From: Dehalococcoidia bacterium
GTDB lineage: Bacteria > Chloroflexota > Dehalococcoidia > SHYB01
Length of the DNA stretch: 32,000 nucleotides
Direction of reading: 5' to 3'
NCBI GenBank assembly: GCA_034420775.1
Contig: DAOUKZ010000058.1
Location: 16,108-48,107 of the forward strand
The notes beneath the pieces were generated by a model. That model did no database searches. It worked only from the letters and a program-made list of their open reading frames with translations, and had not been told where the DNA came from. Numbering within the stretch: the stretch's first letter is position 1; every line of letters starts with the position of its first letter. Both the position numbers and the translations under genes were made by a program. Positions 1 through 19,602 of the stretch are shown one piece after another.

Positions 1-344
1 TTCCGGCCATACGCGAGCTGTACTGCGCCGAGACGACCGAGCAGGCGCTCATGGAGGCCGCGCCCTACGTGGGCGCCAAGTACGCCGCCTACGCCGATTG
101 GGGCCAGGACAAGACGATCAGCCCGACGGAGGACTTCCGCCGGGAGCTTGCCAAGCTCATGGAAGGCCGGTTCATCATCGGCAGCCCCGACGATTGCGCC
201 GCCGACCTCGCGCGGTGGGAGGCCTTGGGGCTTGGGCCCATCGTCCTGCGCATGCACTGGTCGGGCACGCCCTTCGAGCTCTCCCTCAAGAGCCTGCGGC
301 TCTTCGGCGAGCACGTCATCCCACGCTTCCGCGGCGCCGGTTGA
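1..344 (+). CDS. LLM-class (luciferase-like) flavin/F420-dependent oxidoreductase, C-terminal fragment (5' end outside window)
   Basis: The reading frame is open from base 3 (PAIRELYCAETTEQALMEAAPYVGAKYAAYADWGQDK...) and stops at 342-344. The C-terminal region is clearly paralogous to the end of the next gene (YxxYADWGQDK ... FIxGSxDD ...IPxFR). Confidence 0.7.
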   Translation, partial: PAIRELYCAETTEQALMEAAPYVGAKYAAYADWGQDKTISPTEDFRRELAKLMEGRFIIGSPDDCAADLARWEALGLGPIVLRMHWSGTPFELSLKSLRLFGEHVIPRFRGAG

Positions 345-387
345 CCCACACCAACCCTGTACACTAGGGCCGATACGGAGGATATCT

Positions 388-1407: not shown

Positions 1408-1424
1408 CAGCTCCCCACCGGCGA

Positions 1425-2834: not shown

Positions 2835-2847
2835 GCCGTACCTCCTC

Positions 2848-3312
2848 TTACGTTTGCGCCCATCGCGCCAGTGCCTTTTCGGGCGACGCGATCTCTTCGA
2901 TTCGGGTGTAGTAGAAGTCCTGCCAGCCCTCTTCGGGCAGGCCGGTGAACAGCATCAGGTTGAGGGGGTAGGCCTCGCTGTCGGTAGCGCGGCGGAAATC
3001 GTCCCGGAAGAGGAAGGTCGGCTTGCCCAGCGCGATGGCCATGCCAAGCTCGACCATCACCCCCTCGTCCGGCGGCACGCCGTTGACCACCGCGAAGATC
3101 CCGTCGGACTCGACTACGTCGCGGAAGTCGCCCTGCCCGACACGGTAGGCCCACCCCGGCTCTGAGAGGTTCTCCGGGGCGTTGTTTCGAGAGAACGGCT
3201 CCCAGACCTCCAACTCCAACGCCTCCAGCGCCGCAGTCAGTGGCGGCAGCAGCGCCGCCCGCTGCTGTGCGGAGAAACCGTACGGATTCGCCAGGTAGAC
3301 CGTCTTCCCCAT
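2848..3312 (-). CDS. Nucleoside 2-deoxyribosyltransferase-like protein
   Basis: 154-aa protein with MGKTVYLANPYGF at the N-terminus and GIFAVVNG...DEGVMVELGMAIALGKP, a pattern typical of the nucleoside deoxyribosyltransferase (PF05014-like) fold. Its stop lies 13 nt upstream of the amt start, so the two are probably co-transcribed. Confidence 0.6.
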   Translation of the reverse strand: MGKTVYLANPYGFSAQQRAALLPPLTAALEALELEVWEPFSRNNAPENLSEPGWAYRVGQGDFRDVVESDGIFAVVNGVPPDEGVMVELGMAIALGKPTFLFRDDFRRATDSEAYPLNLMLFTGLPEEGWQDFYYTRIEEIASPEKALARWAQT

Positions 3313-3382
3313 CTCTGCGCGCCGCCCGCCTCACGCGAGATCGCCGACCCGCGTGGTGTGGCGGGTTAGATTGCCCGGCCGG

Positions 3383-3787
3383 CTAGGCTTCCCTGTACAT
3401 GTAGAAGGCGCTCGACCCCAGCACGAGCGGCAGTCCAACGTCGATGACGACCCAGAACTGACCGTCCCCGCCGTTGCCCCACTTCAGGTCCACCCAGTTC
3501 CACAGGAGGAGCAAGAGCAACGCCGCCGCTGCGTAGAAGGTGACATTTCCCGCAATGAACTCCTTGACGTCCGTCCGGGTGTGCATGAGGCGCAACCGCG
3601 CGATCCCCCCGATGACGGCAAACGCGACGGCGGCGATCATGCAGTAATTGAGGATGTCCCAGATTGTCCGCGCGGTCTCCTCCACGTTGGGGTCGTAGAT
3701 TGGCGTCGCGACGAAGTGGCCCGCCACCGCCACCGCCACGAGCATCATGAATATCGCCGCCACCCGTGTCAGCCCCGATACGACCAT
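3383..3787 (-). CDS. Small integral membrane protein, unknown function
   Basis: 134 aa with about four hydrophobic helices. A GGGAGGG Shine-Dalgarno lies 4-5 nt upstream of ATG 3787. No recognisable family motif. Confidence 0.5.
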   Translation of the reverse strand: MVVSGLTRVAAIFMMLVAVAVAGHFVATPIYDPNVEETARTIWDILNYCMIAAVAFAVIGGIARLRLMHTRTDVKEFIAGNVTFYAAAALLLLLLWNWVDLKWGNGGDGQFWVVIDVGLPLVLGSSAFYMYREA

Positions 3788-3942
3788 AACGCCCTCCCGT
3801 CGGTAAGAGTCCGCGGACCTGCGGCACAGTGTAGGCGAACCTCAAACCGCGTTCAATAACGCTACCCGCGTCTCCTGCGGCCCCACGCCGCTGCCCTCCC
3901 GTAGAATTAAGGCGCCGCGGCCCGCGGCCGAGGAGGAGCACC

Positions 3943-4335
3943 ATGCCCGACGGCGCGTTCACCCTGTTCAAGACCTTCGTCCACCTCGAGGATGGCCCGG
4001 GGGCGTCCGAGGTCGCCGTCGGCGACCGGTTCTGGGAGGAGATCGGCAGCCGCGCCGACCTTCAGGAAGGACGCCTCGTCACCGCCGCTCATTGGGAGGA
4101 GGATTGGTCCGTCTGGGAGCGCCACCCCGCCGGCGACGAGATCGTCTTCGTCCTCTGGGGCCGTGCCGACCTCGTCCTGCAAGAAGACGGCGGCGAACGC
4201 ATTGTCCCCCTTCCCTCTGGCCATGCCTGCATCGTGCCTCGGGGCGTCTGGCACACCGCCCGCGTTCCCGAGCCCACCAACGCCCTCGCGATCACGCGCG
4301 GCGCCGGCACCGAGCACCGCCCCATAGCGGGGTAG
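3943..4335 (+). CDS. Cupin-domain protein
   Basis: 130 aa with the two cupin motifs (WERHPAGDEIVFVLWG and PSGHACIVPRGVWHTA). A strong GAGGAGGAG ribosome-binding site lies upstream. Confidence 0.7.
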   Translation: MPDGAFTLFKTFVHLEDGPGASEVAVGDRFWEEIGSRADLQEGRLVTAAHWEEDWSVWERHPAGDEIVFVLWGRADLVLQEDGGERIVPLPSGHACIVPRGVWHTARVPEPTNALAITRGAGTEHRPIAG

Positions 4336-4394
4336 TATCGCAACCGCCGCCGAAGTCGTAGAATAGCCTCAATATCGTAGATAGGAGTGGTGCA

Positions 4395-5027
4395 ATGTCT
4401 GAACTACGCGATGCTCAGATCGACCTCGAACAGTCCCTGCTCAAGCCCATCACCGACGCCTTTCCCCAGGCCAGGGGCATCAACATCGAGGTCGAAATCT
4501 GGCAGGACAACCGGCGGAAGCGCGGCGACGCTGCCCTCGAAAGCTGGCAACCCGGCAGGGACGGCGAGATCAGGATCCGCTTCGCCGCCCCGGCCCGCTC
4601 CGGTTCGTGGTCACGCGACTACGACGCGGCCGGCGCCGAAAGCGCCGAGCCCCCGCTCGACCCAGAAGACCTGCGCCGCGACCTCCTTGAGTCGCTGGAG
4701 ATCGCGGAGCGCCGGCCCGGCTTCGACTTCGTCGCCCTCAAATGGTTCCGCGACCTCTTCCTGCCCGCCGAATGTCCAGAATGGGCGGAGTCTCGCGCGC
4801 TCCGCGACCGGGCCGTCCGCAGCGCCATCGAGGACGGGGTGATCCTCACCAACAAGGTGCCGAACCCTAAGAACCCTGCCTTCCCCGTGACCGCGATCCG
4901 CGTGAACCGGGCCCACCCGGAGGTCATCGGCCTGCTGGGCGAGGACGATTCCGACGGCCCGCGCTTCCGCCCCGTCTCCATGCGGGGCGAGCCGCTCTCC
5001 AAGACGGTGCTCGACGAAAGACGCTAG
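4395..5027 (+). CDS. Hypothetical protein; putative atypical (long) antitoxin partner of the downstream PIN toxin
   Basis: 210-aa ORF with AGGAG 7 nt upstream. It stops 3 nt before the PIN-gene start. The C-terminal tail (RPVSMRGEPLSKTVLDERR) resembles my recollection of toxin-binding tails on PIN-associated antitoxins. The central part (FVALKWFRD...AIEDGVILTNKVPNPKNPAFPVTAIRVN) looks wHTH-like. These are inferences only. Confidence 0.45.
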   Translation: MSELRDAQIDLEQSLLKPITDAFPQARGINIEVEIWQDNRRKRGDAALESWQPGRDGEIRIRFAAPARSGSWSRDYDAAGAESAEPPLDPEDLRRDLLESLEIAERRPGFDFVALKWFRDLFLPAECPEWAESRALRDRAVRSAIEDGVILTNKVPNPKNPAFPVTAIRVNRAHPEVIGLLGEDDSDGPRFRPVSMRGEPLSKTVLDERR

Positions 5028-5030
5028 GCG

Positions 5031-5477
5031 GTGGCGCTCTACTACCTCGACACGAGCGCGCTGGTCAAGCTCTACGTTGCCGAACCCGGCACCGAGCGCA
5101 TGTTGGACCTCGCCGACAGCGAGGATGCTAACCAGTTCGCGGTGCTCTCCATCGCCCAGGCCGAGCTCTGGTCGGCGTTGGGCCGACGCCAGCGGGACGG
5201 CGCCATCGACGATGAGGAGGCCTCCGACCTCCTCGACCGCTTCAGCGAGGACCTGGAGTCGTTCTTCCTTCGCCAGAACGTCAACGACGCCGTGATCGAC
5301 CTCGCCTGCGCCCTTCTGGAGCGCCACCCGCTGCGGGCCGACGACGCGCTGCAGCTCGCAGGCTGCCTCACCCTCAGGCCGGCGGCTCCCGACACGCCGG
5401 TGTTCACCAGCGCCGACGACGACCTGCTCGACATCGCCGAGGAGGAAGGGCTGCGCACCTTCAACCCCGTCGAGTAG
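5031..5477 (+). CDS. vapC: PIN-domain ribonuclease toxin (VapC-like)
   Basis: It starts at GTG with the typical PIN N-terminus (ALYYLDTSALVKL). Additional conserved acidic positions are present (AQAELW, RADDALQLA, SADDDLL). Size is 148 aa and the gene is tightly coupled to the upstream ORF. Confidence 0.75.
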   Translation: MALYYLDTSALVKLYVAEPGTERMLDLADSEDANQFAVLSIAQAELWSALGRRQRDGAIDDEEASDLLDRFSEDLESFFLRQNVNDAVIDLACALLERHPLRADDALQLAGCLTLRPAAPDTPVFTSADDDLLDIAEEEGLRTFNPVE

Positions 5478-5510
5478 CGCAGCGGTCCAGTTGGCGACGC
5501 TGTCCCGCCG

Positions 5511-5539
5511 TTGACAGGGAAGAAGCCGTCTCCTAGACT
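5511..5539 (+). promoter_or_regulatory. Putative sigma70-type promoter of the DUF35-thiolase gene pair (TTGACA-N17-TAGACT)
   Basis: Perfect -35 TTGACA at 5511-5516, a 17-nt spacer, then TAGACT at 5534-5539. It lies about 25 nt upstream of ATG 5564, which has no obvious Shine-Dalgarno, so the leader would be short. Confidence 0.4.
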
Positions 5540-5563
5540 CGCGGCGCCCCCAGCGCGCTTCCT

Positions 5564-5977
5564 ATGACCTCTTCGCCACGCACCCGGCCGCTACCCGTTC
5601 CCACCGACTTCTCGCGCCCATTCTGGGAGGGGACGCGGGCCGGACGGCTGCTGGTCCCTAGGTGCTCCGACTGTGGCTTCTACCGCTGGACGCCGCAGCC
5701 CGCCTGCCCCCGCTGCCTCTCCGAGGCCTTCGAGTGGACCGAGGTCAGCGGGCGGGGTGAGATCTACAGCTTCTCCGTGATCTACCGTTCCGCCGACCCC
5801 GTCGTCTTTCCCGACCCCTATGTGGTCGCCGTCGTCCGGCTGGAGGAAGGCCCGGCCATGCTCAGCACCATCGTGGGCTGCCCGTTCGAGGAGCTACGGG
5901 TCGGGATGGCCGTCGAGGTGTCCTTCGAGAAGGTGACTGACGAAATCACCCTCTACCCCTTCAGGCCGGCCTCCTGA
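5564..5977 (+). CDS. Zn-ribbon/OB-fold protein (DUF35 family), thiolase partner
   Basis: 137 aa with the FWEG motif, a four-Cys rubredoxin-like ribbon (CSDCGFYRWTPQPACPRC) and then an OB-fold region. Its stop overlaps the thiolase start (ATGA at 5975-5979). Confidence 0.8.
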   Translation: MTSSPRTRPLPVPTDFSRPFWEGTRAGRLLVPRCSDCGFYRWTPQPACPRCLSEAFEWTEVSGRGEIYSFSVIYRSADPVVFPDPYVVAVVRLEEGPAMLSTIVGCPFEELRVGMAVEVSFEKVTDEITLYPFRPAS

Positions 5978-7209
5978 TGCCGGCGCCCCGCGACGCGGCC
6001 ATCGTCGGCCTCTACACGACGAAGCAGACGCGCGGCGAGGGCCGCAGCGGCTTTTCGCACGCCATGGAGGCGCTCCGCGGCGCCCTGGACGACGCGGGTC
6101 TGACCATCCAGGACGTCCAGGGCCTGTTCGTCCAGCTCGATGCCTGGCCGCAGAATCCGGCGGCGCCCGTCTACGGCATGAAGGCGAACTGGCCGTACCT
6201 GTTGGGCATTCCGCTTCGCTGGCAGACCGGCGCGGTCAACGCCGCCGACAGCGGCGCGCCGGCCATCATCGACGCCGCCGCGGCGATCAAGACCGGCAAC
6301 GTCGACACGGTCGCCATCATCCTGGGGCGGGGCATGACCCAGCCCCCAGACGGCCGCACCGCCCCGTGGACGCGCCACGTCCAGGAGTTCACCGGCTGGA
6401 CGGGCTCCTACACCGCGATCCAGTTCGCGCTCGTCGCCTCGCGGCACATGGCGGTCTACGGCACGACGCCCGAGCAGCTTGCCGCGGCCTCGGCCACGGT
6501 GCGCAACTACGGCAACGTGAACCCGCAGGCGTTGATGTACGGCCGGGGCCCCTACGATGTCGACCGTGTCGTCAACGCCCGCATGATCGCGACGCCGCTC
6601 ACCGTGCTGATGTGCGCCCAGGTCAACGACGGGGGCGGCGCCATGATCATCACCACCGCCGAGCGGGCGCGCGACCTCAAGAAGCCGCCGGTGCACATCC
6701 TCGGGGGCGGCGACCAGCTTTCCTATCCCGCCTACACCGAGGCGCCGCTGCTTGAGCACCACCTCGGCGGCCCCTTCGCCACGGACTGGGTCGACAAGGG
6801 CTTCGCCCGCGCCGGGGTGACCCGCGACGACGTCGACTTCGTCGAGCTGTACGACGGCTTCGCCATCTGGATGCTGACCCAGTGGGAGATGCTCGGCTTC
6901 TGCAAGCCCGGCGAGGGCGGGCCGTTCGTCGAGAGTGGCGTCATGGAGCTCGACGGGCGCTATCCCACCTGCACGGACGGCGGCTGCATGTCGTTCAGTC
7001 ACAACGGCACGCCGTCGCTCTTCCGGCCCATCGAGGCCGCCCGCCAGCTCCGGGGCGAGGTCATGGACGACTGCCCCGGCTGGGAGCGGGGCGAGCATTC
7101 CTACCTGAAGGGCGCCTGCCGGGCCGTCAAGGACGCCAAGATCGGCATGGCGGTGACGATGGGCCCGCCCACCGGCGGCGGCAACTTCGTCCTCCTCGCC
7201 AAGGACTAG
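5977..7209 (+). CDS. Thiolase-superfamily protein, SCP-x / lipid-transfer-protein type
   Basis: 410 aa. The C-terminal region (ELYDGFAIWMLTQWEMLGFCKPGEGGPFV...TDGGCMSFSHNG) is typical of the non-classical thiolases that pair with DUF35 proteins. Confidence 0.8.
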   Translation: MPAPRDAAIVGLYTTKQTRGEGRSGFSHAMEALRGALDDAGLTIQDVQGLFVQLDAWPQNPAAPVYGMKANWPYLLGIPLRWQTGAVNAADSGAPAIIDAAAAIKTGNVDTVAIILGRGMTQPPDGRTAPWTRHVQEFTGWTGSYTAIQFALVASRHMAVYGTTPEQLAAASATVRNYGNVNPQALMYGRGPYDVDRVVNARMIATPLTVLMCAQVNDGGGAMIITTAERARDLKKPPVHILGGGDQLSYPAYTEAPLLEHHLGGPFATDWVDKGFARAGVTRDDVDFVELYDGFAIWMLTQWEMLGFCKPGEGGPFVESGVMELDGRYPTCTDGGCMSFSHNGTPSLFRPIEAARQLRGEVMDDCPGWERGEHSYLKGACRAVKDAKIGMAVTMGPPTGGGNFVLLAKD

Positions 7210-7304
7210 GCGCTCGCCGCTTTTCCCCCAGGGCTTGCCCCTTCTCCGCCGCCGAAGCTACCATGCGCCGCAGTCCCGGGATGGGATGACGGGAGGCGAG
7301 AGCT

Positions 7305-8108
7305 ATGGCTTCGTGGACGGGGAAAGTTGCGTTCGTGACGGGTGCGGGGATGGGGATCGGGCGCGCGACGGCGGTCCGGTTCGCACGGATCGGGGCGAAC
7401 GTGGTGGCGGTCGACGTGGACGACGAGGCCGGGCGCGAGACGATCGGCGAGATCGGCCATGGGGACAGCAAGGCGATCTTCGTCCAGGCCGACGTGTCGT
7501 CGGAGAGCGACGTGGCCGGGGCGGTCGAGAAGGCCGTCTCCACCTTCGGGCGCATCGACCTGCTCCATAACAATGCAGCCATCATGCGCCGGCACGACTC
7601 GCTCGAAGCGTGGCCCATCGAGGAGTTCCGCCGCGTGATCGACGTCAACCTGAACGCGCCCTTCCTGGTGGCCAAGGTGGTCGCGCCGGTGATGCGCGAC
7701 GGCGGGGGCGGCGTCATCATCAACATGTCGTCGCAGGGCGGGCTGGTCTCGGTGCCGTACTCGCCGAGCTACGCCGCGGCGAAGGCGGGCGTGATCTCGC
7801 TCACGCGCACCCTCCCCGACATGCTCCGGGGGACGAACATCCGAGTGAACGCGATCTGCCCCGGCTTCACCGACACGCCCATGACCCGGAACCCGCGGGC
7901 GCGGGCCAACCTGGGGTCCGTGGCGATGGCCCCGATGGACGCCGACGACCTCGCCCGCGCGGTGCAGTACCTCGCCGAGCGCGAGGACCTCGACCGCTTC
8001 ATGATGGTCGTGGCCCGCGACGCTGAAGGCAGGGTCGAGTACCTGCAGGTCCAAGACCCGCCCGCGCAGACCGCCATCGGCTTGGCCGACGACATCGGCC
8101 CCCAATGA
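7305..8108 (+). CDS. Short-chain dehydrogenase/reductase (SDR) 1
   Basis: TGAGMGIGRA glycine-rich NAD(P) motif, NNAA, and the YSPSYAAAK catalytic Yxxx(x)K region. GGGAGG Shine-Dalgarno upstream. Confidence 0.85.
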   Translation: MASWTGKVAFVTGAGMGIGRATAVRFARIGANVVAVDVDDEAGRETIGEIGHGDSKAIFVQADVSSESDVAGAVEKAVSTFGRIDLLHNNAAIMRRHDSLEAWPIEEFRRVIDVNLNAPFLVAKVVAPVMRDGGGGVIINMSSQGGLVSVPYSPSYAAAKAGVISLTRTLPDMLRGTNIRVNAICPGFTDTPMTRNPRARANLGSVAMAPMDADDLARAVQYLAEREDLDRFMMVVARDAEGRVEYLQVQDPPAQTAIGLADDIGPQ

Positions 8109-8893
8109 ACCGCGCCGACGGCAAGGTTGCCATCGTGACCGGGGCCGCCGGCGGCATCGGCCGCGCCTCGGCGCTGCTCTTCGCCGAACGCGGCGCGAAG
8201 GTCGTTGTCGTTGACCTGAAGGAAGAGGAGGGCGCGGAGACCGCTCACATGATCGCCATGAGCGGCGGCGAGGCCATCTTCGCCGCGGCCGACGTCTCCG
8301 ACGTACCCCAGGTGCAGGAGCTGGTGGGCACGGCGCTGACCGCCTACGGGCGGGTCGACTACCTCCACAACAACGCCGCGATCATCGCCCACCACCGCGA
8401 CGTCGACGAGATCGGCGTCGACGAGTGGCGGCGCATCATCGACGTCAACCTGTCTTCGCTTTTCATCTGCTCCAAGGCCGTCATCCCGATGATGCGGACG
8501 CAGGGCGGCGGCGCCATCGTCAACACCTCGTCGGGCGCGGGGGTGGCGGCCTACGGCATCGCCCTCGCCTACTCCGCCGCCAAATTCGGCGTTCTGGGCC
8601 TGACCCAGGGTCTGCAGCAGCTCGTCGAGGGCGACAACATCCGCGTGAACGCGGTGCTGCCGGGCATGACGCGGACGCCGATGCTCGAGGTCTCCGACAC
8701 GGGCCGCGCCGCCCTCCAGAAGCCGGAGATGCTCCTCGACCCCATGGACCTCGCCCGCGCGGTCTTCTACCTCGCGGTCAACGAGGAGATGCGCGCGGCC
8801 CTAGTCTACACGAGCCTGGGCGACGACGGCCCGGTCTACGATCTCGTGCTCCCCAACCAGTACGAACGCCTGAGCGGCGTGGAGGCATTCTGA
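8105..8893 (+). CDS. Short-chain dehydrogenase/reductase (SDR) 2
   Basis: TGAAGGIGRA, NNAA and YSAAK motifs. The start overlaps the SDR1 stop (ATGA). Confidence 0.85.
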   Translation: MNRADGKVAIVTGAAGGIGRASALLFAERGAKVVVVDLKEEEGAETAHMIAMSGGEAIFAAADVSDVPQVQELVGTALTAYGRVDYLHNNAAIIAHHRDVDEIGVDEWRRIIDVNLSSLFICSKAVIPMMRTQGGGAIVNTSSGAGVAAYGIALAYSAAKFGVLGLTQGLQQLVEGDNIRVNAVLPGMTRTPMLEVSDTGRAALQKPEMLLDPMDLARAVFYLAVNEEMRAALVYTSLGDDGPVYDLVLPNQYERLSGVEAF

Positions 8894-9684
8894 TGGGTCA
8901 ACTCGACGGAAAAGCTGCCATCGTCACCGGCGCGGGGTCGGGCATGGGACGCGCCACCGCGGCGCTGCTCGCCTCGGAGGGCGCCAAGGTCGTGGTGGCC
9001 GACGTCGACGAGGCCGGGGCCGCCGAGACGGTCTCCCAGATCGCCGCGGCGGGCGGCGAGGCCGTGGCGGTGGTCGGCGACCACTCGGTGAACAAGGACG
9101 TGCAGGAGGTCGTGGGCACGGCGCTGTCGAACTACGGCGGCGTCGACGCGCTCCACAACAACGCGGGCATCCTGCGCAGCTACGGGAGCATCGAGGAGCA
9201 CCCCGAGGACGTGTGGCGGCGCGTGGTCGACGTGAATCTGACCGGGTACTTCCTGATGTCGCGGGCGGTCCTGCCCCTGATGCGGGCCGGCGGCGGCGCG
9301 ATCGTCAACACGGCCTCGATGGCCGCCATCCATCCCTACGCGCCCGGCCCGGCCTATTCGGCCTCCAAGGCGGGCGTGCTGGGCCTGACCACCGCGTTCG
9401 CCGAGGCCGGGGCCGCCGACGGCGTCCGCGTCAACGCCATCTGCCCCGGCGGCGTCGACACCGCCATCCTGAGGTGGGCCTCGGTGCCCGTCCCCGACGA
9501 CCGCTCCGGCCTCGGCCTCATGGATCCCGGCGACATCGCCCGCCTCGTCCTCTACTTCGTCACCCACCCCGACATCACCGGCCAAGCCATCGCCGCCCGC
9601 AAGATCGACGGCGAGACCCGCTATCACTACGTGGATGTGCTGGTGAGCGAGCGGGAGCTGGTGATCGGTAAGGGGGGCCCCTAG
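8893..9684 (+). CDS. Short-chain dehydrogenase/reductase (SDR) 3
   Basis: The internal ATG at 8893 of ORF 8425..9684 gives MGQLDGKAAIVTGAGSGMGRA. NNAG and YSASK motifs are present. ATGA overlap with the SDR2 stop. The 8425-8892 extension overlaps SDR2 in another frame and is Arg/Pro/Gly-rich. Confidence 0.85.
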   Translation: MGQLDGKAAIVTGAGSGMGRATAALLASEGAKVVVADVDEAGAAETVSQIAAAGGEAVAVVGDHSVNKDVQEVVGTALSNYGGVDALHNNAGILRSYGSIEEHPEDVWRRVVDVNLTGYFLMSRAVLPLMRAGGGAIVNTASMAAIHPYAPGPAYSASKAGVLGLTTAFAEAGAADGVRVNAICPGGVDTAILRWASVPVPDDRSGLGLMDPGDIARLVLYFVTHPDITGQAIAARKIDGETRYHYVDVLVSERELVIGKGGP

Positions 9685-9725
9685 CCCCTTTTCGGGAATA
9701 CCACCATCAACCTAGGAGCGATTCA

Positions 9726-11951
9726 GTGGCACGAGCGTTCGTGACGTATTCACAGAAGGACTCAGAATTCGTGGATAAGTTGGTTACCGACCTTGAGAGT
9801 GCGGGCCAAGCCTTGGTGCTGGATAAACGGGTGATGCTCCCAGGCGATTCGTTGATGAAGATCTTTGAAGAGATCGGCACAGTCGAATTCTTGTTGGCCG
9901 TCTTGTCTCCGGACGCAGTGAAGAGTAACTGGGTGAAGAAGGAACTTGCAGGTGCAGTCATTCGGGAGATCGAAGAGCCGGGCTTCAAAGTCATCCCCAT
10001 TATCAAGGAGGGCTGCCAGCTACCCACAGCATTAAGGCAAGCCATACGCGACAAATACCAGGCCCGCTTTGATGAAAAGGACCACGATGTGGTAACGAGA
10101 GAGATCCTGGAGGCTCTCTCGGCGGCCAATGATCCTCGAATGCTATATTCCGAATCTCAAGGGCCACGTAGTGGCAATCCATTCCGACGTGTCCGCGCTG
10201 AGTATTTTGAGAGCATAAGGACTCTTGCACGATCATATTCGGAACCGGAAGCCGCTCGCTACGAAAGAATAGTGGAAACCAAACCTGTCATTCTTGAAGG
10301 AGGCAGAGGGTCGGGCAAGACGATGACCTTGAAGTCGATGCTCTTGCAAGCCTTGCTTTCTCGCTTCCGCCGACAAACCTTGGATGAGACAAACATCTCC
10401 TACTTTGGCGTATACCTTCGCTTCGTTCCCGGTTCATTCGCCACCCAGTCACAAGCAGTGGAGGAGATCGTTGGGATGGACCGTTGTATCGCTCTATTTA
10501 TGAGCGAAACGATTCTCAAATTAACACATGCGTTGGTAGAAGAACTAAAATCCTGTGCGGACGCAGGCGTTGTCCAAACCAGTAGTAGTCGGGAGCGCCA
10601 ACTCGTTTCGGAGATTACCAACATTGTAAGACCATCAGTTCAGGGCGATCCACAGACAACTGACCTGGAAACTCTGAGCAGGATGTTATCCATAGAAATC
10701 CGGTTTATAACAGACTACGTGAACCGCCAATTGTTCGGAGAAAGCAGCGAATACAAAGGGGTATTCCTCCGTGTTGAAGACCTGAAGCGAATTTGTCATG
10801 CTACGACTAGCATATACCTGGCGAGACCCGAAGCGACAGTCTACTTCCTTTTGGACGAATTCGAAAGCCTGTTGGTTTTTCAGAAAGTAGTGACTAACAG
10901 CATCCTTAAAGCTAGCGAGTCCGGACACTACTCGGTGAAAATCGCGACCAAGAAGGCCGCTTTGGCGACATCTAGTACACTTGAAGCTCAAGAGATCGAA
11001 GAACCTCACGATTACACCTCAGTTGATGTCGACTACAACATTTCCGACTCTCAGGAGCGCCAGAATTACAAAGATCTACTAATCACGATCTGTGAGAACA
11101 GCCTGTCCAACGAAGCCTTCAGCGAAACGAGGATCGACCAGCTTTTGGAACCCCGGCTTGACTGGGACGGACTGAATAGAGAAGAGGTTGACGATGAGAT
11201 AACCAGTGTTTTAGGAGACCGTCCTGTAACGGCCGAGGATCGACACAGACTAGGACATGCTGCCGTCTTTAGGCTGCTTCACCGACAGAGAGGCAAGAGG
11301 AAGCAGTTTGCTGGTTTTGATGACTTGGTTACTCTTTCCTCCGGAATAATCAGGTTATTCTTGGAGCTAGCAGGCTTGTCCTATCACTTTGCAGTACAAG
11401 AGAATATTGACGTGAAGGGAGGACAGCCAATTGGACGCAGCCACCAAACTAGCGCAGCATACGCACTTTCGGATTACTATTTGACGACCATCAGAAGCAA
11501 TGTCGCGACAGTAGGACCTCAGATTCAGCAACTTGTTGTTGACTTGGGAGATATATTTCGAGCGAAGCTGCTCAAACATACCAGCGAGCCAGAAGGGTCG
11601 CGGTTAGCTATCCATGATCCGCATTTGCTAGAAGAGTCGGCCTCCAAAGAGGCTGAGATGGTGCTTACGCAAGCTGTAATCCATTCAATCTTTCAGAACC
11701 CTGAACAACGAGGCGGGATGCGACCAAAGCACCTGACCGACATTCAACCACAGGAGTATATCCTCAACCGGGTCTATAGTCCCAGCCTCGGCATTTCGCC
11801 TCGACCTCGCTGGCGCACGCGAATCAGCACCAAGGACCTGCTTGAACTCATGGATCCAACCCTTCGGCAGAAAACCAAATCTAGATTGACGAGATTGGTT
11901 AGTCGTTCGAGTGCAATGCAATCGGAGTTGCCGCTGGAGGCCGGCTCATGA
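9726..11951 (+). CDS. TIR-domain / P-loop NTPase fusion protein (candidate NADase-type defence effector-sensor)
   Basis: GTG start with AGGAG 7 nt upstream. Residues 1-135 form a TIR domain (AFVTYSQKDSEFVDKL..., LLAVLSPDAVKSNWVKKELAGA, with the conserved Glu at codon 73, nt 9942-9944). Walker A is GGRGSGKT (nt 10299-10322). The Walker B-like element is VYFLLDEFESL (about nt 10845-10865). About 360 further residues have no motif I recognise. Confidence 0.8.
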   Translation: MARAFVTYSQKDSEFVDKLVTDLESAGQALVLDKRVMLPGDSLMKIFEEIGTVEFLLAVLSPDAVKSNWVKKELAGAVIREIEEPGFKVIPIIKEGCQLPTALRQAIRDKYQARFDEKDHDVVTREILEALSAANDPRMLYSESQGPRSGNPFRRVRAEYFESIRTLARSYSEPEAARYERIVETKPVILEGGRGSGKTMTLKSMLLQALLSRFRRQTLDETNISYFGVYLRFVPGSFATQSQAVEEIVGMDRCIALFMSETILKLTHALVEELKSCADAGVVQTSSSRERQLVSEITNIVRPSVQGDPQTTDLETLSRMLSIEIRFITDYVNRQLFGESSEYKGVFLRVEDLKRICHATTSIYLARPEATVYFLLDEFESLLVFQKVVTNSILKASESGHYSVKIATKKAALATSSTLEAQEIEEPHDYTSVDVDYNISDSQERQNYKDLLITICENSLSNEAFSETRIDQLLEPRLDWDGLNREEVDDEITSVLGDRPVTAEDRHRLGHAAVFRLLHRQRGKRKQFAGFDDLVTLSSGIIRLFLELAGLSYHFAVQENIDVKGGQPIGRSHQTSAAYALSDYYLTTIRSNVATVGPQIQQLVVDLGDIFRAKLLKHTSEPEGSRLAIHDPHLLEESASKEAEMVLTQAVIHSIFQNPEQRGGMRPKHLTDIQPQEYILNRVYSPSLGISPRPRWRTRISTKDLLELMDPTLRQKTKSRLTRLVSRSSAMQSELPLEAGS

Positions 11952-12898
11952 CGGTTCGACAGCTGTCTTCACTGGGTCCCGTAGTCGAGGAGCGAGCCGA
12001 GGTGTTCATTGGGTGCGCTAGCTTTGAAGAACGCTGTCTGGGCGGTTTGAGCTTGCTCCCCCCAGCGTACCGTTTCGCCCATAGCTACCTGTGCATCTAT
12101 GACGACTTCAATGAAGCCAGGCAGCCAAATGTCAGGGCTATGACCGAAGTTCTTCAGGGGCATGGGCCATTGAGCACAGTCGAGGCCTCTGAGGAAAATC
12201 CCTCTCGTTCGATCGCCGAGTTGCTAAGTGGCATTCGTGCCCTTGCTGCGCTATCGGAGATCAGAGTCACTTTGGACGCGTCCACCTTCACGAAACGACA
12301 TCTGCTGCTATTGCTGCATGCTTTAGATGATGCTGGACTATGGCGTTCATTGAGGATTCTCTACACTGAACCTAAGGAATACGTTGTTGATATGTACCTG
12401 CCAATGTCCATGGGGATTAAAGAAGTGGCACCTATACCCGGCTTCACGAATGTAAAGCCTCCTGACAAGCCTGTACTTTTAGTGATTATGCTCGGCTATG
12501 AAGGTGATCGGTCGATGGCTCTCTTTCAAACGATTGAACCCAACGAAACAGTGCTTCTGGTGCCGAAACCTGCTTACCGCCCCGAGTGGGAGGGGCGAAC
12601 TGAGGAACTCAATGGACAGCTAGTCTCACTCTTGGGTGAAGATGCTATAGAATACGCCGACTCTCGGGATCCCCTTCAAGTCAAAACGGCCCTCGACAAA
12701 GTGTTGGGCAATCGGTACTCGACAAAGGACTGGACTTGTCTAGTATCGCCGTTGGGAACGAAACCCCAAACAGTCGGCCTCTATGCGTTTTGGCGAGAGA
12801 AGCCTGATTCTTGCGCATTGATATATGCGCAACCACTGAGACACAACGAAAGGTACTACTCCAAAGGTTCAGGCCCGACTTGGGAGTTGGGAATCTGA
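11948..12898 (+). CDS. Hypothetical protein with two tandem Rossmann-like (CARF/SAVED-like?) modules
   Basis: ATGA overlap with the upstream stop. Two internally similar halves each open with a strand-Gly-aromatic-Glu-x-acidic-Arg element (VFIGCASFEERCL and LLVIMLGYEGDRSM). About 85-90 residues later each has a strand followed by a polar-xxx-Lys element (VTLDASTFTKRHLL, which fits the CARF signature [DN]x[ST]xxx[RK], and CLVSPLGTKPQTV). The fold assignment is inference. Confidence 0.55.
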   Translation: MTVRQLSSLGPVVEERAEVFIGCASFEERCLGGLSLLPPAYRFAHSYLCIYDDFNEARQPNVRAMTEVLQGHGPLSTVEASEENPSRSIAELLSGIRALAALSEIRVTLDASTFTKRHLLLLLHALDDAGLWRSLRILYTEPKEYVVDMYLPMSMGIKEVAPIPGFTNVKPPDKPVLLVIMLGYEGDRSMALFQTIEPNETVLLVPKPAYRPEWEGRTEELNGQLVSLLGEDAIEYADSRDPLQVKTALDKVLGNRYSTKDWTCLVSPLGTKPQTVGLYAFWREKPDSCALIYAQPLRHNERYYSKGSGPTWELGI

Positions 12899-14172
12899 TG
12901 AGGAGACGTCAGACCATTGAACCACAATCGATAGACCTAAAGAATCGATCTGATGTGGCGCTTGATCGAATAGCGATGCGACTTCATCAGCTTGACAAGT
13001 ATCCAGCGAAGATGATTCCTCACATGGCCCGGTTTTTGATTGAAAGGGTATCGGAACCGGGCGACACGGTATTGGATCCCTTTTGCGGTACTGGCACGGT
13101 GGTTCGCGAAGCGCTCGCGCTTGGCCGCAATGCTATAGGACTGGATGTGAATCCATTAGCCACACTTTTTACCCATGTGAAGGTTCAGAATTACCACCGC
13201 AAGGCACTAGAGAGACAATTGGCAGAACTGCTGGAGGAATTTAGGAGGCAAAAACCAACCATTGTTTTCGGCTTCCCGAACGCGGAGTACTGGTTTACTC
13301 CAGCGACTCTACGAAAACTAGCGATCATACGGTCTGTAGTGGATCGATTGCCCCAGAAAGTGCCGAGCCCATATCCAGACTTTTGGCGGGCCGTACTGGC
13401 ATCTATTGTGCGCCAAGCGAGTAGAGCAGATAATCGAGGTCCGAAGCCCTTTATTTCGAAAAGAGCGCGCGAGAGGAAGAAGGGGATAAATTGCAATCCA
13501 TTTACATTGTTTGCACGTGCAGGTCAAGCTCGCATTGACCTGCTAGGCTCGAGCGCTGACAAATTCGGCGACAGTCGAGTTGAAGTGATGCACGGTAATG
13601 CCAAGACACTGCCCACTAGCATGAGGACAGTCGGTGTCGATGCAGTTGTGACGTCGCCTCCGTACCTAAACGCTCAGGACTATTATAGGTCGTGCAAACT
13701 AGAACTATGGGTCCTTGGACTCCTTGGAGTAGACGCGAATATGAAGTGGGCCCGTGATGAGATCATAGGGACTGACAGAATGCGCATCGACCATCGACTG
13801 TTCGACCTCCCAATGCCTTCACCCACAAGTGTCGCCGCCCGCGAGAGCCTGGTATCCGCTAATCCCAAGAGCGCATGTATTTTGACGAAATACACCTTAG
13901 ATATGGCGAAGGTACTTTCCCAAATAGAACAAGTGCTGAAGCCAGGAGGGTATTGTGCAGTAGTCTCAGGGGACAACACTCTTTCCGGCATGCCCGTGCA
14001 AACTCACAAGATCATCACGGAACTCGCACTGCACTCGGGCTTCCGATTAACGCATCACTATGTGGACGCCATACGAGATCGGTGGGTACCTCCTTCCCGT
14101 AATGGTCACAACGGAGTGATCCTTGAGGAACATATACAAATCTTCCAAACCCCCTTGTCTATCAGCAGTTAA
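12898..14172 (+). CDS. DNA methyltransferase, N4-cytosine/N6-adenine (amino-MTase) family, motif I before motif IV
   Basis: The ATG at 12898 overlaps the upstream stop (ATGA). The AdoMet-binding block is YPAKMIPHMARFLIERVSEPGDTVLDPFCGTGTVVREALALGRNAIGLDVNP (DPFCGTGT at nt 13075-13098). The catalytic motif IV is VVTSPPYLNAQDY (SPPY at nt 13654-13665). About 185 residues separate the two motifs. The 12811-12897 extension overlaps the previous gene. Confidence 0.8.
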   Translation: MRRRQTIEPQSIDLKNRSDVALDRIAMRLHQLDKYPAKMIPHMARFLIERVSEPGDTVLDPFCGTGTVVREALALGRNAIGLDVNPLATLFTHVKVQNYHRKALERQLAELLEEFRRQKPTIVFGFPNAEYWFTPATLRKLAIIRSVVDRLPQKVPSPYPDFWRAVLASIVRQASRADNRGPKPFISKRARERKKGINCNPFTLFARAGQARIDLLGSSADKFGDSRVEVMHGNAKTLPTSMRTVGVDAVVTSPPYLNAQDYYRSCKLELWVLGLLGVDANMKWARDEIIGTDRMRIDHRLFDLPMPSPTSVAARESLVSANPKSACILTKYTLDMAKVLSQIEQVLKPGGYCAVVSGDNTLSGMPVQTHKIITELALHSGFRLTHHYVDAIRDRWVPPSRNGHNGVILEEHIQIFQTPLSISS

Positions 14173-14230
14173 TGTCGTACCTGGAGAGTTGATAGAGGGC
14201 GCCTGCCATCGCGGCGCGACTTCCCTGATT

Positions 14231-14265: not shown

Positions 14266-14294
14266 TTGTCGCTACCCTTGGCGCTCCCTATAAT
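14266..14294 (+). promoter_or_regulatory. Putative sigma70-type promoter of dnaJ (TTGTCG-N17-TATAAT)
   Basis: TTGTCG at 14266-14271, a 17-nt spacer, and a perfect TATAAT at 14289-14294. It lies 30 nt upstream of ATG 14324. Confidence 0.45.
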
Positions 14295-16991: not shown

Positions 16992-17014
16992 GGTCTCTGC
17001 CCTTGGTGGATTCT

Positions 17015-17290
17015 CTAGCCGACGGGGTGGACGCTGACCCTGCGGCGGGTTGGGGTGAAAGGCTCGTACTTCTTGAAGGTGTCGTACTTGACCTTGCCGT
17101 CGATCTTGGCCCAGAGGGTGAAGTCGCTGCCCCGGCGCACGTTCTCGCCCGGGTGAATCTTCGTGCCCCGCTGGCGCACCAGAATGCTGCCGGCGGTGAC
17201 GACCTGCCCGTCGTAGATCTTCACGCCGAGCCGCTGCGACTGGCTGTCGCGGCCGTTCCGGCTGGTTCCCGATCCCTTCTTGTGTGCCAT
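17015..17290 (-). CDS. rpmA: 50S ribosomal protein L27
   Basis: [24 protein letters not shown]... is the canonical L27 N-terminus, with no Firmicute-type propeptide. Confidence 0.95.
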
Positions 17291-17305
17291 GAGGTATCCG
17301 CCTCG

Positions 17306-17659
17306 CTAGCTTTTCTCGGCCTTCGCCACGGCGCCGCCCGGGGTCTCGATCTCTTGGATCGAAATCCTGGCGAACCGCTGACGGTGGCCCTTCTTGCGCC
17401 GGTACCGGATCTTCGGCTTGTACTTGAAGACGAGGATCTTCTTCGCCCGGCCTTCCTCTTCCACCTTCGCGACCACGCGCGCGCCGTCGACGTAGGGTGC
17501 GCCCACCGAGACGTCGCCCTCGTGGCTGACCACGAGCACGTCGTCGAAGTTGACGGTGTCGCCGGGCTCGTGGTCCTTCATCCGCTCGACGTCGATGACG
17601 TCGCCGGGGGCCACGCGGTACTGCTTACCGCCGGTCTGGATAATCGCGTAGCTGGACAT
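17306..17659 (-). CDS. rplU: 50S ribosomal protein L21
   Basis: [13 protein letters not shown]...[17 protein letters not shown] is the canonical L21 sequence. Confidence 0.95.
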
Positions 17660-17702
17660 GGAGAGGAAGCTCGTTCAGCCCTTCTAGAACTGCAACCCTT
17701 AG

Positions 17703-17731
17703 ATTCTATCGGCCCCCTGGGGGAGTGTCAA
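17703..17731 (-). promoter_or_regulatory. Near-consensus sigma70-type promoter of the rplU-rpmA-rpmE-DUF1385 operon (TTGACA-N17-TAGAAT on the minus strand)
   Basis: The minus strand reads TTGACA (17731-17726), then the 17-nt spacer CTCCCCCAGGGGGCCGA, then TAGAAT (17708-17703). It lies about 45 nt upstream of the rplU ATG. The spacer contains the palindrome CCCCC-N-GGGGG. Confidence 0.55.
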
Positions 17732-17773
17732 CGGAAGCGGGGGCGGGGTGCCGTAGCGGCTTCAAGTCCTATT

Positions 17774-18238
17774 TCATTCGGGCACGGCCGTTCTCTTGTA
17801 GGTAGCAAGGCGGTCAGCAAGGTTCTGCATTGCTTCCTTTGGTACTTGCCCGTCTTCCAGAAGCAAATCACGGATTCTATCGGCCTTGTCTGATGGGGAG
17901 TCCCACCAATCAAGAAAGGTGAAGGTGAGCCACTCACCAGCTCCTAAGTCGGTGAAGGCAGTCTCGTCTTCCGATAGCATGGAGCGCAGGGTCTCCTCGT
18001 CAAGCCGGATGCCGTACTCCAAACTCAAGAAGGTCAATGCCTCGGAGACGTATTCGATGACACGCTGCCTGCTGTCGTCCGCGACCGAATCACCTCCTGA
18101 TTGCCCCTCGTTGACCGTCTCTCGTGTGCTCCCGTCTCCCGCTTGCAAAATGAGAACAAGGACAATTAGGCCGATCCCTGCCCAGACCCACCATTTGATT
18201 CCCTGCAACCAGTAGAGAAACTCAGATAGCTTATCCAT
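17774..18238 (-). CDS. Hypothetical membrane-anchored protein with an acidic C-terminal domain
   Basis: 154-aa ORF with one N-terminal hydrophobic helix (WWVWAGIGLIVLVLIL) followed by an Asp/Glu-rich soluble region. It is noticeably AT-richer than its neighbours. No family recognised. Confidence 0.5.
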   Translation of the reverse strand: MDKLSEFLYWLQGIKWWVWAGIGLIVLVLILQAGDGSTRETVNEGQSGGDSVADDSRQRVIEYVSEALTFLSLEYGIRLDEETLRSMLSEDETAFTDLGAGEWLTFTFLDWWDSPSDKADRIRDLLLEDGQVPKEAMQNLADRLATYKRTAVPE

Positions 18239-18435
18239 GGGTCTCTGTTGGTCGCCCGTGTCAAACTTCCTGCGGAACCGCGTCTAGGTCCAGTCGATAA
18301 CGCTTCAAACCAAGACTCCACTAGGAAGGCGCCGCCGTCGCCGCAGCGCCATGGCCATCCTCGCGTTGACGCCTTAGCCGCCGCGTCCTTAAGATAACGC
18401 GGCATTCCAAGACCGGTTTCCCAGAAGGAGGCCAG

Positions 18436-19602
18436 GTGTACGACACGAAAGAGCTTAGCGACAAAGCGGCCATCGTCGGCATCGGCGAGACGACGTATTC
18501 GCGCAAGTCGGGGATGAGCAACCTCACCCTGCAGTTGACCGCCTGCATGCGGGCGATCGAGGACGCGGGCATCCAGCCGGGCGACATCGACGGCATCCTG
18601 CCGCAGGCGGCAGGGGCGACGTCGGAGGACATCGCGACGAACCTCGGCGTCAAGGACCTGAAGTTCTCGGCGGCGATCAACATGGGCGGCGCGAGTCCGT
18701 GCGCCGCGCTGCAGAACGGCGTCCTCGCGGTCGCCTCGGGGGTCTGCGACTACGTCCTGCTGGTATCGGGACGGAACGGCTACTCCGGGGCGCGGACGGC
18801 CCAGTCGCTCGCCGCCGGTGGGCTGCAGGGACCGATGCGGGCCATGGGCGAGTTCGAGTACATCTACGGCCTCGTCGCGCCGATGCTGTGGTACGGCCCC
18901 ATGGCGCGGAAGCACATGGAAACCTACGGCACCACCAGCGAGCAGTTCGGCGAGGTCTCCGTCGCCATGCGCAAGCACGCCTCGATGCAGAGCAACGCGC
19001 AGATGAAAGACCCCATCACGCTCGAAGACCACCAGAACTCGCCGATGCTCGCCGACCCGTTCCGGCTGCTGGACTGCTGCCTGCAGACGGACGGCGCGGC
19101 GGCCTGCGTGATCACGCGCGCCGACCGGGCCAAGGACCATCCGCGGAAGCCGGTCTACATCAGCGGCTTCGGCGAGGCCCACCCCGACTCGCCGAGCTCG
19201 ATCACGCAGCGCCCCGACATGACCACCTTCGGCATCGCCAAGCTCGCGCCCCGCGTCTTCGGCATGGCGGGCATCACTCCCCAGGACATCGACGTGGCGC
19301 AGATCTACGACTGCTTCACCTTCACCGTCATCAACCAGCTCGAAGACCTCGGCTTCTGCAAGAAGGGCGAGGGCGGCGGCTTCGTCGAAGGCGGACGGCT
19401 CCAGATCGGCGGCGACCTGCCGGTGAACACCCACGGCGGGTTGCTCTCCCAGGGCCACATCATGGGCATGAACCACGTCATCGAGGGCGCCAAGCAGATC
19501 CGCGGCTCGAGCGACGTGCAGGTCGAGGGCGCCGAGCACTGCCTCGTCAGCGGCTACGGCGACTTCGGCGACGGCGCGCTCGCCATCTTCAGGGGGAACT
19601 GA
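18436..19602 (+). CDS. Thiolase-superfamily protein, SCP-x / lipid-transfer-protein type (second copy)
   Basis: GTG start 5 nt after AAGGAGG. Related to the 5977..7209 product (QIYDCFTFTVINQLEDLGFCKKGEGGGFV...NTHGGLLSQGH). Confidence 0.8.
   Translation: MYDTKELSDKAAIVGIGETTYSRKSGMSNLTLQLTACMRAIEDAGIQPGDIDGILPQAAGATSEDIATNLGVKDLKFSAAINMGGASPCAALQNGVLAVASGVCDYVLLVSGRNGYSGARTAQSLAAGGLQGPMRAMGEFEYIYGLVAPMLWYGPMARKHMETYGTTSEQFGEVSVAMRKHASMQSNAQMKDPITLEDHQNSPMLADPFRLLDCCLQTDGAAACVITRADRAKDHPRKPVYISGFGEAHPDSPSSITQRPDMTTFGIAKLAPRVFGMAGITPQDIDVAQIYDCFTFTVINQLEDLGFCKKGEGGGFVEGGRLQIGGDLPVNTHGGLLSQGHIMGMNHVIEGAKQIRGSSDVQVEGAEHCLVSGYGDFGDGALAIFRGN

Follow-up and report, generated by a model that had tools for sequence, protein, structure and literature searches.

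A mobile TIR-ATPase, CARF6 and DNA methyltransferase cassette from a Dehalococcoidia bacterium as a candidate methylation-linked defence system

BREX, the Hma/DUF499 BR systems and MADS pair a DNA methyltransferase and a large ATPase, ORC/Cdc6-like or AAA+, and contain no classical restriction endonuclease, and a self-marking logic is presumed in systems of this type (PMC12839542). Operons in which an HD-CE or PRTase-CE effector accompanies an ATPase of Pfam family PF24389 keep a fixed gene order in a compact, mobile format, and their middle gene is CARF6-like (hidden Markov model (HMM) E-values of 1e-8 to 1e-73). In TIR-STAND, Avs and bNACHT proteins and in plant TIR-NLRs, a TIR domain is placed at the N terminus of an ORC/STAND-clade NTPase, and in Cat1 and the type III CRISPR CARF effectors a TIR NADase is under the control of a sensor with a CARF fold. 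Some features of each of these systems recur in a low-GC island that we analyzed in a 32,000-nt stretch of a Dehalococcoidia bacterium genome (assembly GCA_034420775.1, contig DAOUKZ010000058.1, positions 16,108 to 48,107, forward strand), referred to here as the window. The island carries three genes, g1, g2 and g3, which encode a TIR domain fused to a PF24389 ATPase, a tandem-CARF protein of the CARF6 family and a DNA methyltransferase. We propose that it is a self-contained, mobile anti-invader cassette whose mode of action is most likely methylation-linked abortive infection, a proposal that we regard as evenly balanced between right and wrong.

The composition of the cassette sets it apart from each of these systems. 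Unlike the HD-CE/PRTase-CE operons, it has TIR fused to the ATPase N terminus and not a separate effector gene, its methyltransferase is a permuted SPPY N6_N4 enzyme where those operons carry a C5 or gamma-N6 enzyme, and it has no Thy1 or dUTPase_2 accessory gene. It contains no PglZ, BrxA, BrxB, BrxC, BrxL, helicase or DUF499, the PADLOC matches to mad2 (5e-16, motif I only) and mad8 (2e-4) are weak and partial, and its effector is a predicted NADase, whereas the activity in BREX, Hma and MADS is DNA-directed. With respect to the STAND receptors, g1 has no NACHT or NB-ARC Pfam match and the PADLOC TIR-NLR profile covers aa 1-95 only (E = 9e-5); C-terminal repeat sensors are missing, the CARF sensor is a separate protein and a methyltransferase belongs to the operon. 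A logic of the TIR-NLR type, with ligand-triggered oligomerisation activating the TIR domain, would nonetheless be expected for g1. The putative control of a TIR NADase by a CARF-fold sensor is shared with Cat1, but the cassette has no Cas10 or cyclic oligoadenylate synthase, its CARF and TIR domains are on separate proteins with the ATPase between them, and its CARF protein resembles a pseudo-dimer within a single chain. Thoeris also pairs a TIR protein with a Rossmann-like nucleotide sensor; here, in contrast, there is no SIR2, Macro or transmembrane effector (ThsA-like gene), TIR is in the effector slot, and an ATPase and a methyltransferase are added. The Thoeris III profile ThcB4 scored 17 bits against the cassette, with a cut-off of 220.

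Neither the island nor the conserved cassette in other loci was found to encode a CD-NTase, pyrimidine cyclase or Cas10, and a nuclease domain or cognate restriction endonuclease was missing from the three genes of the island and from 43 homologous loci. Thoeris, CBASS, Pycsar, SPARTA, Avs, MADS, BREX and type II restriction-modification (R-M) were all rejected because their signature genes are missing, and no named or tested system was found to match the cassette. A sequence-only reading of the island, made earlier, had already held that the trio fits neither Thoeris, CBASS, SPARTA and Avs nor classical R-M, and this comparison bears it out.

To probe the distribution of the trio, we searched with an alignment of g2 through a set of genomes in which each species had a single representative. 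This returned 51 loci (given L numbers below) from Chloroflexota, Acidobacteriota, Planctomycetota, Verrucomicrobiota, Spirochaetia, Nitrospirota, Latescibacterota and Hydrogenedentota, and further from Methanoregula, Bathyarchaeia, Thermococci, Thaumarchaeota and others. The order ATPase, CARF6, methyltransferase was kept in 43 of them, with the genes mostly overlapping or nearly abutting, so that the co-conservation expected from the single locus is found across genomes. The identities of the three cassette proteins correlate across loci (Spearman 0.43-0.58, p <= 0.01). In L001 and L002, the closest cassettes (70-80% amino-acid identity), homology is confined to the trio, corresponding to window positions 9710-14159, and the flanks are unrelated. 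The GC content of the cassette was lower than that of its host in nearly every locus tested, as in L045 (0.52 versus 0.72). Unrelated flanks and a cassette GC that is usually lower than that of the host show that the three genes travel as one horizontally mobile unit.

The window cassette is one version of a wider class composed of an effector, a PF24389 ATPase, CARF6 and a DNA methyltransferase. We defined the class by a PF24389 ATPase gene followed directly by a CARF6-like gene and then by a DNA methyltransferase gene, with the effector either fused to the ATPase or encoded upstream; this architecture was met in the window, L001-L048, L055-L062, L064 and L066-L068. TIR lies at the ATPase N terminus in the window and in L001-L048 and at the C terminus in L057, in both cases with an SPPY-type N6_N4 methyltransferase and no extra gene. 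HD-CE (PF24391) is accompanied by a C5 DNA methylase, sometimes fused to HhH-GPD, and usually by Thy1 (L055/56, L059-61), and PRTase-CE (PF24390) by a gamma-type N6_Mtase of the Eco57I type, with dUTPase_2 in L064 only (L064 and the Lachnospiraceae loci L066/67). A ParA-like fusion occurs with an N6_Mtase and no extra gene in L068. Neither a methyltransferase nor an extra gene accompanies the Ser/Thr kinase fusion of the archaeal locus L054 or the PRTase-CE of L065, which lies beside DarTG on a Burkholderia gladioli plasmid; the PLSDB gene table for L065 is incomplete, and an adjacent methyltransferase could be missed there.

All middle proteins of the class match a CARF6 HMM (E-values of 1e-8 to 1e-108). 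A CARF6 profile search among 1.84 billion gave 2962 cluster representatives at a threshold of E <= 1e-3, and tightening this to E <= 1e-10 left 1434; these CARF6-like representatives are almost all stand-alone proteins of ~310-345 aa. In one representative, P0379 (643 aa), the C-terminal two thirds of CARF6 are joined to an N6_N4 methyltransferase, which is either a genuine fusion or an artefact of assembly, frameshift or gene calling at the overlapping junction. Because TIR, HD-CE, PRTase-CE and kinase domains swap around a constant ATPase-CARF6 pair, TIR occupies the effector slot and is not a signal generator; this swapping removes the signalling option that had been left beside NAD+ depletion for the TIR domain. 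Three unrelated families of DNA methyltransferase fill the last slot, which suggests that DNA methylation itself is what the system requires.

The component families of the cassette are already catalogued, and the class has probably been predicted and is uncharacterised. The PADLOC CARF6 profiles reportedly come from Makarova et al. 2020, as judged by their naming, and Nicastro, Burroughs, Iyer and Aravind very probably predicted the operon class in 2023, an unconfirmed attribution based on the consecutive Pfam accessions PF24389-PF24391 and on the occurrence of both PRTase-CE and HD-CE in this class. The name of one PADLOC profile, CARF6--CARF_STK_AAA, mirrors the kinase-ATPase variant in L054. 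A literature search that included Dnd, BREX and NAD+-system papers and excluded Makarova 2020, Nicastro 2023 and Burroughs & Aravind 2020 yielded no description of this operon, and no relevant paper covered by it used the name CARF6. The earlier designation of the system as undescribed thus stands in that no named or tested system matches it, and goes too far in that CARF6 has PADLOC profiles, PF24389 is a Pfam family and PRTase-CE and HD-CE operons belong to the same class. PMC12871103 credits the names PRTase-CE and HD-CE to Nicastro et al. 2023 (its ref. 8), which also bears on the attribution of the class.

The domain assignments of the three proteins were examined by profile, structure and conservation analyses. 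For g1, Pfam TIR_2 matched aa 5-116 (E = 3e-15), and Foldseek aligned the N terminus with bacterial and plant TIR domains, and with AbTir, SARM1 and others, at a probability of 1.0. The nearest PDB sequences to this region were Cat1, a CARF-TIR NADase and the best match at 7e-14, and also AbTir, likewise an NADase, BtTir and PdTIR. The SNWVKKEL segment aligns with KEWPQKEL of PdTIR, placing Glu73 as the glutamate of the alphaC motif (SxW..xEL), and conservation of this catalytic-type residue was at least 90% when 23 homologues were aligned. NADase activity is predicted for g1 from these similarities. The remainder of the protein matched PF24389, "ORC-CDC6-like", at 240.9 bits (cut-off 27; E = 4e-71). 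The Walker A (GGRGSGK198T) and Walker B (LLD377E378) motifs were invariant in the same 23 homologues, as were several C-terminal motifs. In the AlphaFold2 (AF2) model the predicted local distance difference test score (pLDDT) was 85, and Foldseek matches to the whole protein included the TIR-NLR RPP1 (the best whole-chain match), RdrA, ORC/Cdc6 and MalT; the likeness to RPP1 is at the level of architecture only. No sequence relative of the ATPase part was found in the PDB.

The g2 protein itself has no Pfam or NCBIfam match. It matched eight PADLOC CARF6 profiles at E <= 1e-15, the best being CARF6--CARF_CARF_CARF at 6e-32 over the full length. The AF2 model (pLDDT 91, predicted template modelling score 0.91) contains two Rossmann-like halves. 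Foldseek returned the CARF domains of Csm6, Cam1, Csa3 and Can2 with a probability of 1.0 over ~140 residues, and the whole-length matches were tandem USP-like folds. Among homologues, Pfam CARF_Card1 falls on the N-half or on the C-half depending on the protein, exceeding the cut-off in P0057, P0113 and P0053. The invariant residues (E27, R29 and G32; D110, K116 and H118; G183, Y184, E185, G186 and R188; P268, G270, T271, K272, P273 and Q274) lie in each half within the beta1-alpha1 and beta4-alpha4 loops, the canonical CARF ligand loops. With its two CARF-like halves and invariant polar residues in both ligand loops, CARF6 looks like a ligand-binding pseudo-dimer within one chain, and ligand binding is accordingly a prediction from conservation and modelled fold. 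An internal duplication was not significant at the sequence level, with hhalign of N-half versus C-half giving E = 0.13 in a sensible register. No solved structure of any CARF6 sequence relative was found in the PDB, a search of a viral fold library with CARF6 gave nothing meaningful, and no effector domain was found in g2. Compared with the CARF6 clade profiles, g2 has no CRISPR-cas or Cas10 context and is a stand-alone tandem CARF protein without an effector domain.

The g3 protein matched Pfam N6_N4_Mtase (PF01555) at 2e-18 and, over its full length, PADLOC MTase_II at 8e-41. Motif I is N-terminal and TSPPY follows ~190 residues on, an order that PDB alignments show to be permuted with respect to beta-class enzymes. 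The motifs DPFCGSG and TSPPYxNAQ were invariant in 45 of 45 cassette methyltransferases. An SPPY motif leans to N4-cytosine methylation; the PDB neighbours of g3 included both N4C and N6A enzymes, together with tRNA m2G methyltransferases through motif I only. DNA is the predicted substrate of g3. Together, these analyses uphold the domain calls that had been read from the letters and translations: a TIR domain with a catalytic-type glutamate on a P-loop NTPase, a tandem CARF-like Rossmann protein and an SPPY amino-methyltransferase. The positions of these features are collected in Table 1.

Table 1. Positions of the island, its genes and motifs in the window, and of transposases in interrupted homologous loci
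Feature	Position (nt of the window unless noted)	Strand	Description	Basis
Low-GC island	9685-14172	+	~4.49 kb between SDR operon and dnaJ	GC shift
Shine-Dalgarno-like AGGAG	9714-9718	+	7 nt before the g1 GTG start	Read from sequence
g1	9726-11951	+	GTG start, 741 aa; TIR + ORC/Cdc6-like ATPase	
g1 TIR domain	9726-10130	+	aa 1-135, N-terminal; Glu73 in SNWVKKEL	Pfam TIR_2, Foldseek
g1 ORC/Cdc6-like ATPase and conserved C-terminal helical region	10176-11951	+	aa 151-741	PF24389
g1 stop/g2 start overlap	11948-11951	+	ATGA	
g2	11948-12898	+	316 aa; CARF6-family tandem-CARF protein	
g2 halves	N-half ~aa 1-168, C-half ~aa 169-316	+	Rossmann-like halves	AF2
g2 stop/g3 start overlap	12896-12900	+	TGATG, 1 nt in common	
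g3	12898-14172	+	424 aa; DNA amino-methyltransferase	
g3 motif I, DPFCGTGT	13075-13098	+	S-adenosylmethionine-binding motif	
g3 motif IV, SPPY	13654-13665	+	Catalytic motif	
Transposases	L017:5175-6614; L024:5666-6439; L035:5249-6880; L031:6285-7727, 8886-10328		Interrupt the TIR-ATPase gene or operon	

The island is distinct in composition from the DNA around it. Its mean GC content is 0.508 (8 windows of 500 nt), against a flank mean of 0.677 with a standard deviation of 0.031 (53 windows of 500 nt), giving z = -5.4. GC at third codon positions is 0.52-0.55 in g1-g3 versus 0.94-0.96 in the adjoining SDR and dnaJ genes. Of the lysine codons, 43% are AAA in the island compared with 15% in host genes; for arginine, AGA and AGG together make up 32% of codons in the island compared with 4%. 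The drop in GC begins at the SDR stop codon (TAG, 9682-9684) and GC returns just past the g3 stop codon (TAA, 14170-14172), ahead of the dnaJ ATG at 14324; the surrounding contig has ordinary housekeeping neighbours. The island contains the three same-strand, translationally coupled genes and no further credible open reading frame (ORF), minus-strand ORFs being at most 140 aa long and all within g1-g3. The sequence-only reading had described a block of ~4.5 kb with its own composition and codon usage and exactly three same-strand genes, and both points hold. Its ATGA overlap is exact at the first junction; at the second the coordinates were right, and the overlap is a single nucleotide within TGATG and not an ATGA.

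No direct or inverted repeats, tRNA genes or integrase genes were found at the island borders, and no promoter-like site was found 5' of g1. Transcription of the cassette may occur by read-through from the SDR operon or from an unrecognised promoter. The best sigma-70-like sequence in the region, TTGTCG-17-TATAAT (14266-14294, 10/12 match), lies in host-type sequence upstream of dnaJ.

In L017, L024, L035 and L031 the TIR-ATPase gene or the operon is broken by transposases (DDE_Tnp_1, ISL3 and UPF0236, the last in two copies) that leave the methyltransferase intact, and an unidentified insertion in L014 (5533-6968) does likewise. This repeated interruption, with the methyltransferase surviving, suggests that the effector gene is costly and recurrently inactivated. 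The ATPase has been lost in L029 and L042. In L049, from another Dehalococcoidia genome, only the last ~55 CARF6 codons are present (8001-8159; 85% identity to the window), with neither ATPase nor methyltransferase, a relic left by deletion of the cassette. Among the 91 ORFs in the flanks are type I S subunits, PglX, Eco57I/MmeI-type methylases, GmrSD, BrxL, a PstI-type restriction endonuclease and integrases, and DarTG and BrxABC-like genes are also among the neighbours of the class.

On the reading that we favour, the g3 methyltransferase would mark the host's own DNA and the tandem-CARF protein would serve as a sensor or adaptor module of the g1 ATPase. A trigger would then cause ATP-dependent switching and oligomerisation of the ATPase, which would act as an assembly platform; oligomerisation would gather the N-terminal TIR domains, and the resulting NAD+ hydrolysis would halt the infected cell. 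For the trigger itself we slightly favour DNA that does not carry the methyl mark of the cassette, with the methyltransferase or the C-terminal region of the ATPase reading the DNA and CARF6 coupling the two. Unmethylated DNA is placed slightly ahead because of the precedents of BREX, MADS and Hma and because of the tight coupling of CARF6 to the methyltransferase. A defence role for the cassette is likewise a prediction.

Several observations weigh against this proposal. L008, L009, L041, L054 and L065 have no methyltransferase, and since several loci are built in this way, a two-gene ATPase-CARF6 core may work without a methyl mark of its own. No hypervariable target-recognition segment is present in the cassette methyltransferases (n = 45), unlike most arms races of the R-M type. 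Global Foldseek matches are uninformative as to whether the C-terminal region of the g1 ATPase binds DNA, and recognition of unmethylated DNA leaves CARF6 without a compelling role. Many neighbours are housekeeping genes, and the enrichment in defence islands, judged without statistics, is modest. We found no experimental work on any member of the class in the literature.

The strongest rival concerns the trigger and supposes a methylome alarm, which we consider a tentative alternative, well short of probable. Here a phage that degrades the chromosome would release methylated (deoxy)nucleotides or short oligonucleotides, which would bind the pseudo-dimeric CARF6 and lead to ATPase assembly and TIR NADase activity. 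Every part of the cassette then has a clear role, and the conserved residues are held in the CARF6 ligand loops. The alternative effectors are all of the abortive kind that targets small molecules or nucleotides, with no DNA nuclease among them, and loci without a methyltransferase could draw on the methylome of the host. CARF6 clades and pocket motifs also differ between systems with different methyltransferase families, a co-variation that is confounded with effector type and phylogeny. A direct precedent exists in PUA-Cal-HAD, in which Dam-derived m6-dAMP triggers depletion of deoxynucleotides (PMC12871103). The analogy is that of a methylome-sourced danger signal activating an abortive effector that depletes nucleotides or NAD; PUA-Cal-HAD differs in having a PUA and not a CARF sensor, no ATPase, and the host Dam in place of a cassette-encoded methyltransferase. 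Against the alarm, no ligand is known, and no physical complex would be needed, whereas the strict operon position, the translational coupling and the P0379 fusion suggest one. The more specific idea that the marked host chromosome supplies methylated nucleotides, or short oligonucleotides carrying the methyl mark, for which CARF6 is the receptor, making the cassette a portable alarm system, we regard as doubtful.

The methyltransferase-less loci just listed would also be expected if the cassette comprised two independent modules, a TIR-ATPase and CARF6 abortive system with a trigger unrelated to methylation, and a hitch-hiking orphan methyltransferase that might, for example, shield the mobile cassette DNA from other restriction systems or act as an epigenetic or addiction element. 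The interchangeability of unrelated methyltransferase families agrees with such independence. However, the methyltransferase is always last and directly after CARF6, usually with overlapping stop and start codons, in ~45 loci across bacteria and archaea; its sequence identity across loci rises and falls with that of its two partners; and the repeated, independent recruitment of different methyltransferases to one slot argues for a functional requirement. We therefore find this arrangement unlikely.

A compact, mobile, low-GC cassette that occupies many insertion sites among housekeeping genes, including the SDR operon-dnaJ site of the window, and whose effector gene is often inactivated by insertion sequence (IS) elements could also be a selfish one, either an addiction or toxin-antitoxin-like cassette kept by post-segregational killing or a regulatory epigenetic module, with no part in defence. 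All of its parts, however, come from families tied to immunity (TIR NADases, STAND/ORC-like switches, CARF sensors and HD-CE/PRTase-CE effectors), and some loci adjoin R-M, BREX or DarTG genes. Addiction and defence are in any case compatible, as R-M systems show, and a purely selfish role seems to us very unlikely. Least credible of all is signalling of the Thoeris or type III CRISPR kind, in which an ADP-ribose-derived signal made by TIR would bind CARF6 and so control the ATPase or the methyltransferase: TIR domains can make cyclic ADP-ribose isomers, nucleotides of a kind that CARF and SLOG folds bind, and a TIR domain with a Rossmann-fold sensor recalls ThsB/ThsA (PADLOC ThsB match E = 0.011, TIR region only), but the ATPase-CARF6 pair persists with HD-CE, PRTase-CE or kinase, from which that signal could not come, g2 carries no effector domain and no downstream effector is encoded.

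If confirmed as a defence system, the cassette would bring together two kinds of immunity that usually occur apart: the epigenetic self-marking of R-M and BREX, and the use of CARF-type sensing of a small molecule to set off an abortive NADase, known from type III CRISPR and Thoeris. The class, found in both bacteria and archaea, has interchangeable effectors and methyltransferase families around a constant ATPase-CARF6 core, and its study could yield a new CARF ligand, a new mode of TIR activation that works through an ORC/Cdc6-like switch, and an explanation for the presence of methyltransferases in so many non-nuclease defence systems. Were the methylome alarm true, CARF sensing would extend beyond cyclic oligoadenylates and DNA methyltransferases would gain a new immune role, the cassette carrying a danger-signal factory (methyltransferase), a sensor (CARF), a switch (ATPase) and an executioner (TIR). 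Versions of the system are present in cultivable hosts, namely Planctomicrobium sp. SH661, Prosthecobacter fluviatilis KACC 12649, Moraxella osloensis pNP7-2 and the Burkholderia gladioli plasmid.

Some additional features were observed in variants of the class. A glycosylase domain of the HhH-GPD family is fused to the C5 methyltransferase of the HD-CE variant in L059 (6921-8729) and L060 (6992-8842). Mismatch-glycosylase-type domains are the usual companions of 5-methylcytosine (m5C) methylation, and the fusion probably serves the repair of T:G mismatches that arise from m5C deamination. Thy1 (ThyX) directly follows the C5 methyltransferase of the HD-CE version at L059:8762-9409, L060:8859-9644 and L061:8187-9137, and is also listed at L054:11421-13034. 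Its GC content is island-like and unlike that of the flanks in L060 and L061, and in L061 the gene overlaps the methyltransferase stop codon. A different thymidylate synthase gene, a canonical thyA (Thymidylat_synt, E ~1e-122), lies on the opposite strand directly downstream of the TIR-type trio in three genomes, two of them from Pyrinomonadaceae and one from Verrucomicrobiae (L004:6574-7365, L005:10253-11044 and L011:10161-10952). Its GC content is host-like in L011 and uninformative in L004 and L005, and we did not count it as part of the TIR-type cassette; its place beside the trio may reflect a shared insertion hotspot or coincidence.

The L064 set (2147-7670) lies on the Moraxella osloensis plasmid pNP7-2 (NZ_CP024445.1, 79318-84841), where it is annotated solely as hypothetical proteins. 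Its gene order is dUTPase_2, PRTase-CE, PF24389 ATPase, CARF6-like and N6 methylase, with an IS3 element and queuosine-type genes downstream. In L065 (577-6588; NZ_CP023524.1) the PRTase-CE/ATPase/CARF6 set adjoins a DarTG-like pair of DUF4433 and macro-domain genes. Upstream of the HD-CE variant in L055 are three minus-strand genes (1-3358) of 276, 187 and >1147 aa, with no Pfam match on record, which look like BrxA, BrxB and BrxC by size and order.

Within the window, a second and milder GC dip (0.57-0.65) is present at 17000-18500. The 154-aa ORF on the minus strand in this dip (17774-18238) had no Pfam match. The dip also spans the genes for ribosomal proteins L21, L27 and L31, and AT skew reaches -0.33 inside it at 17001-17500.

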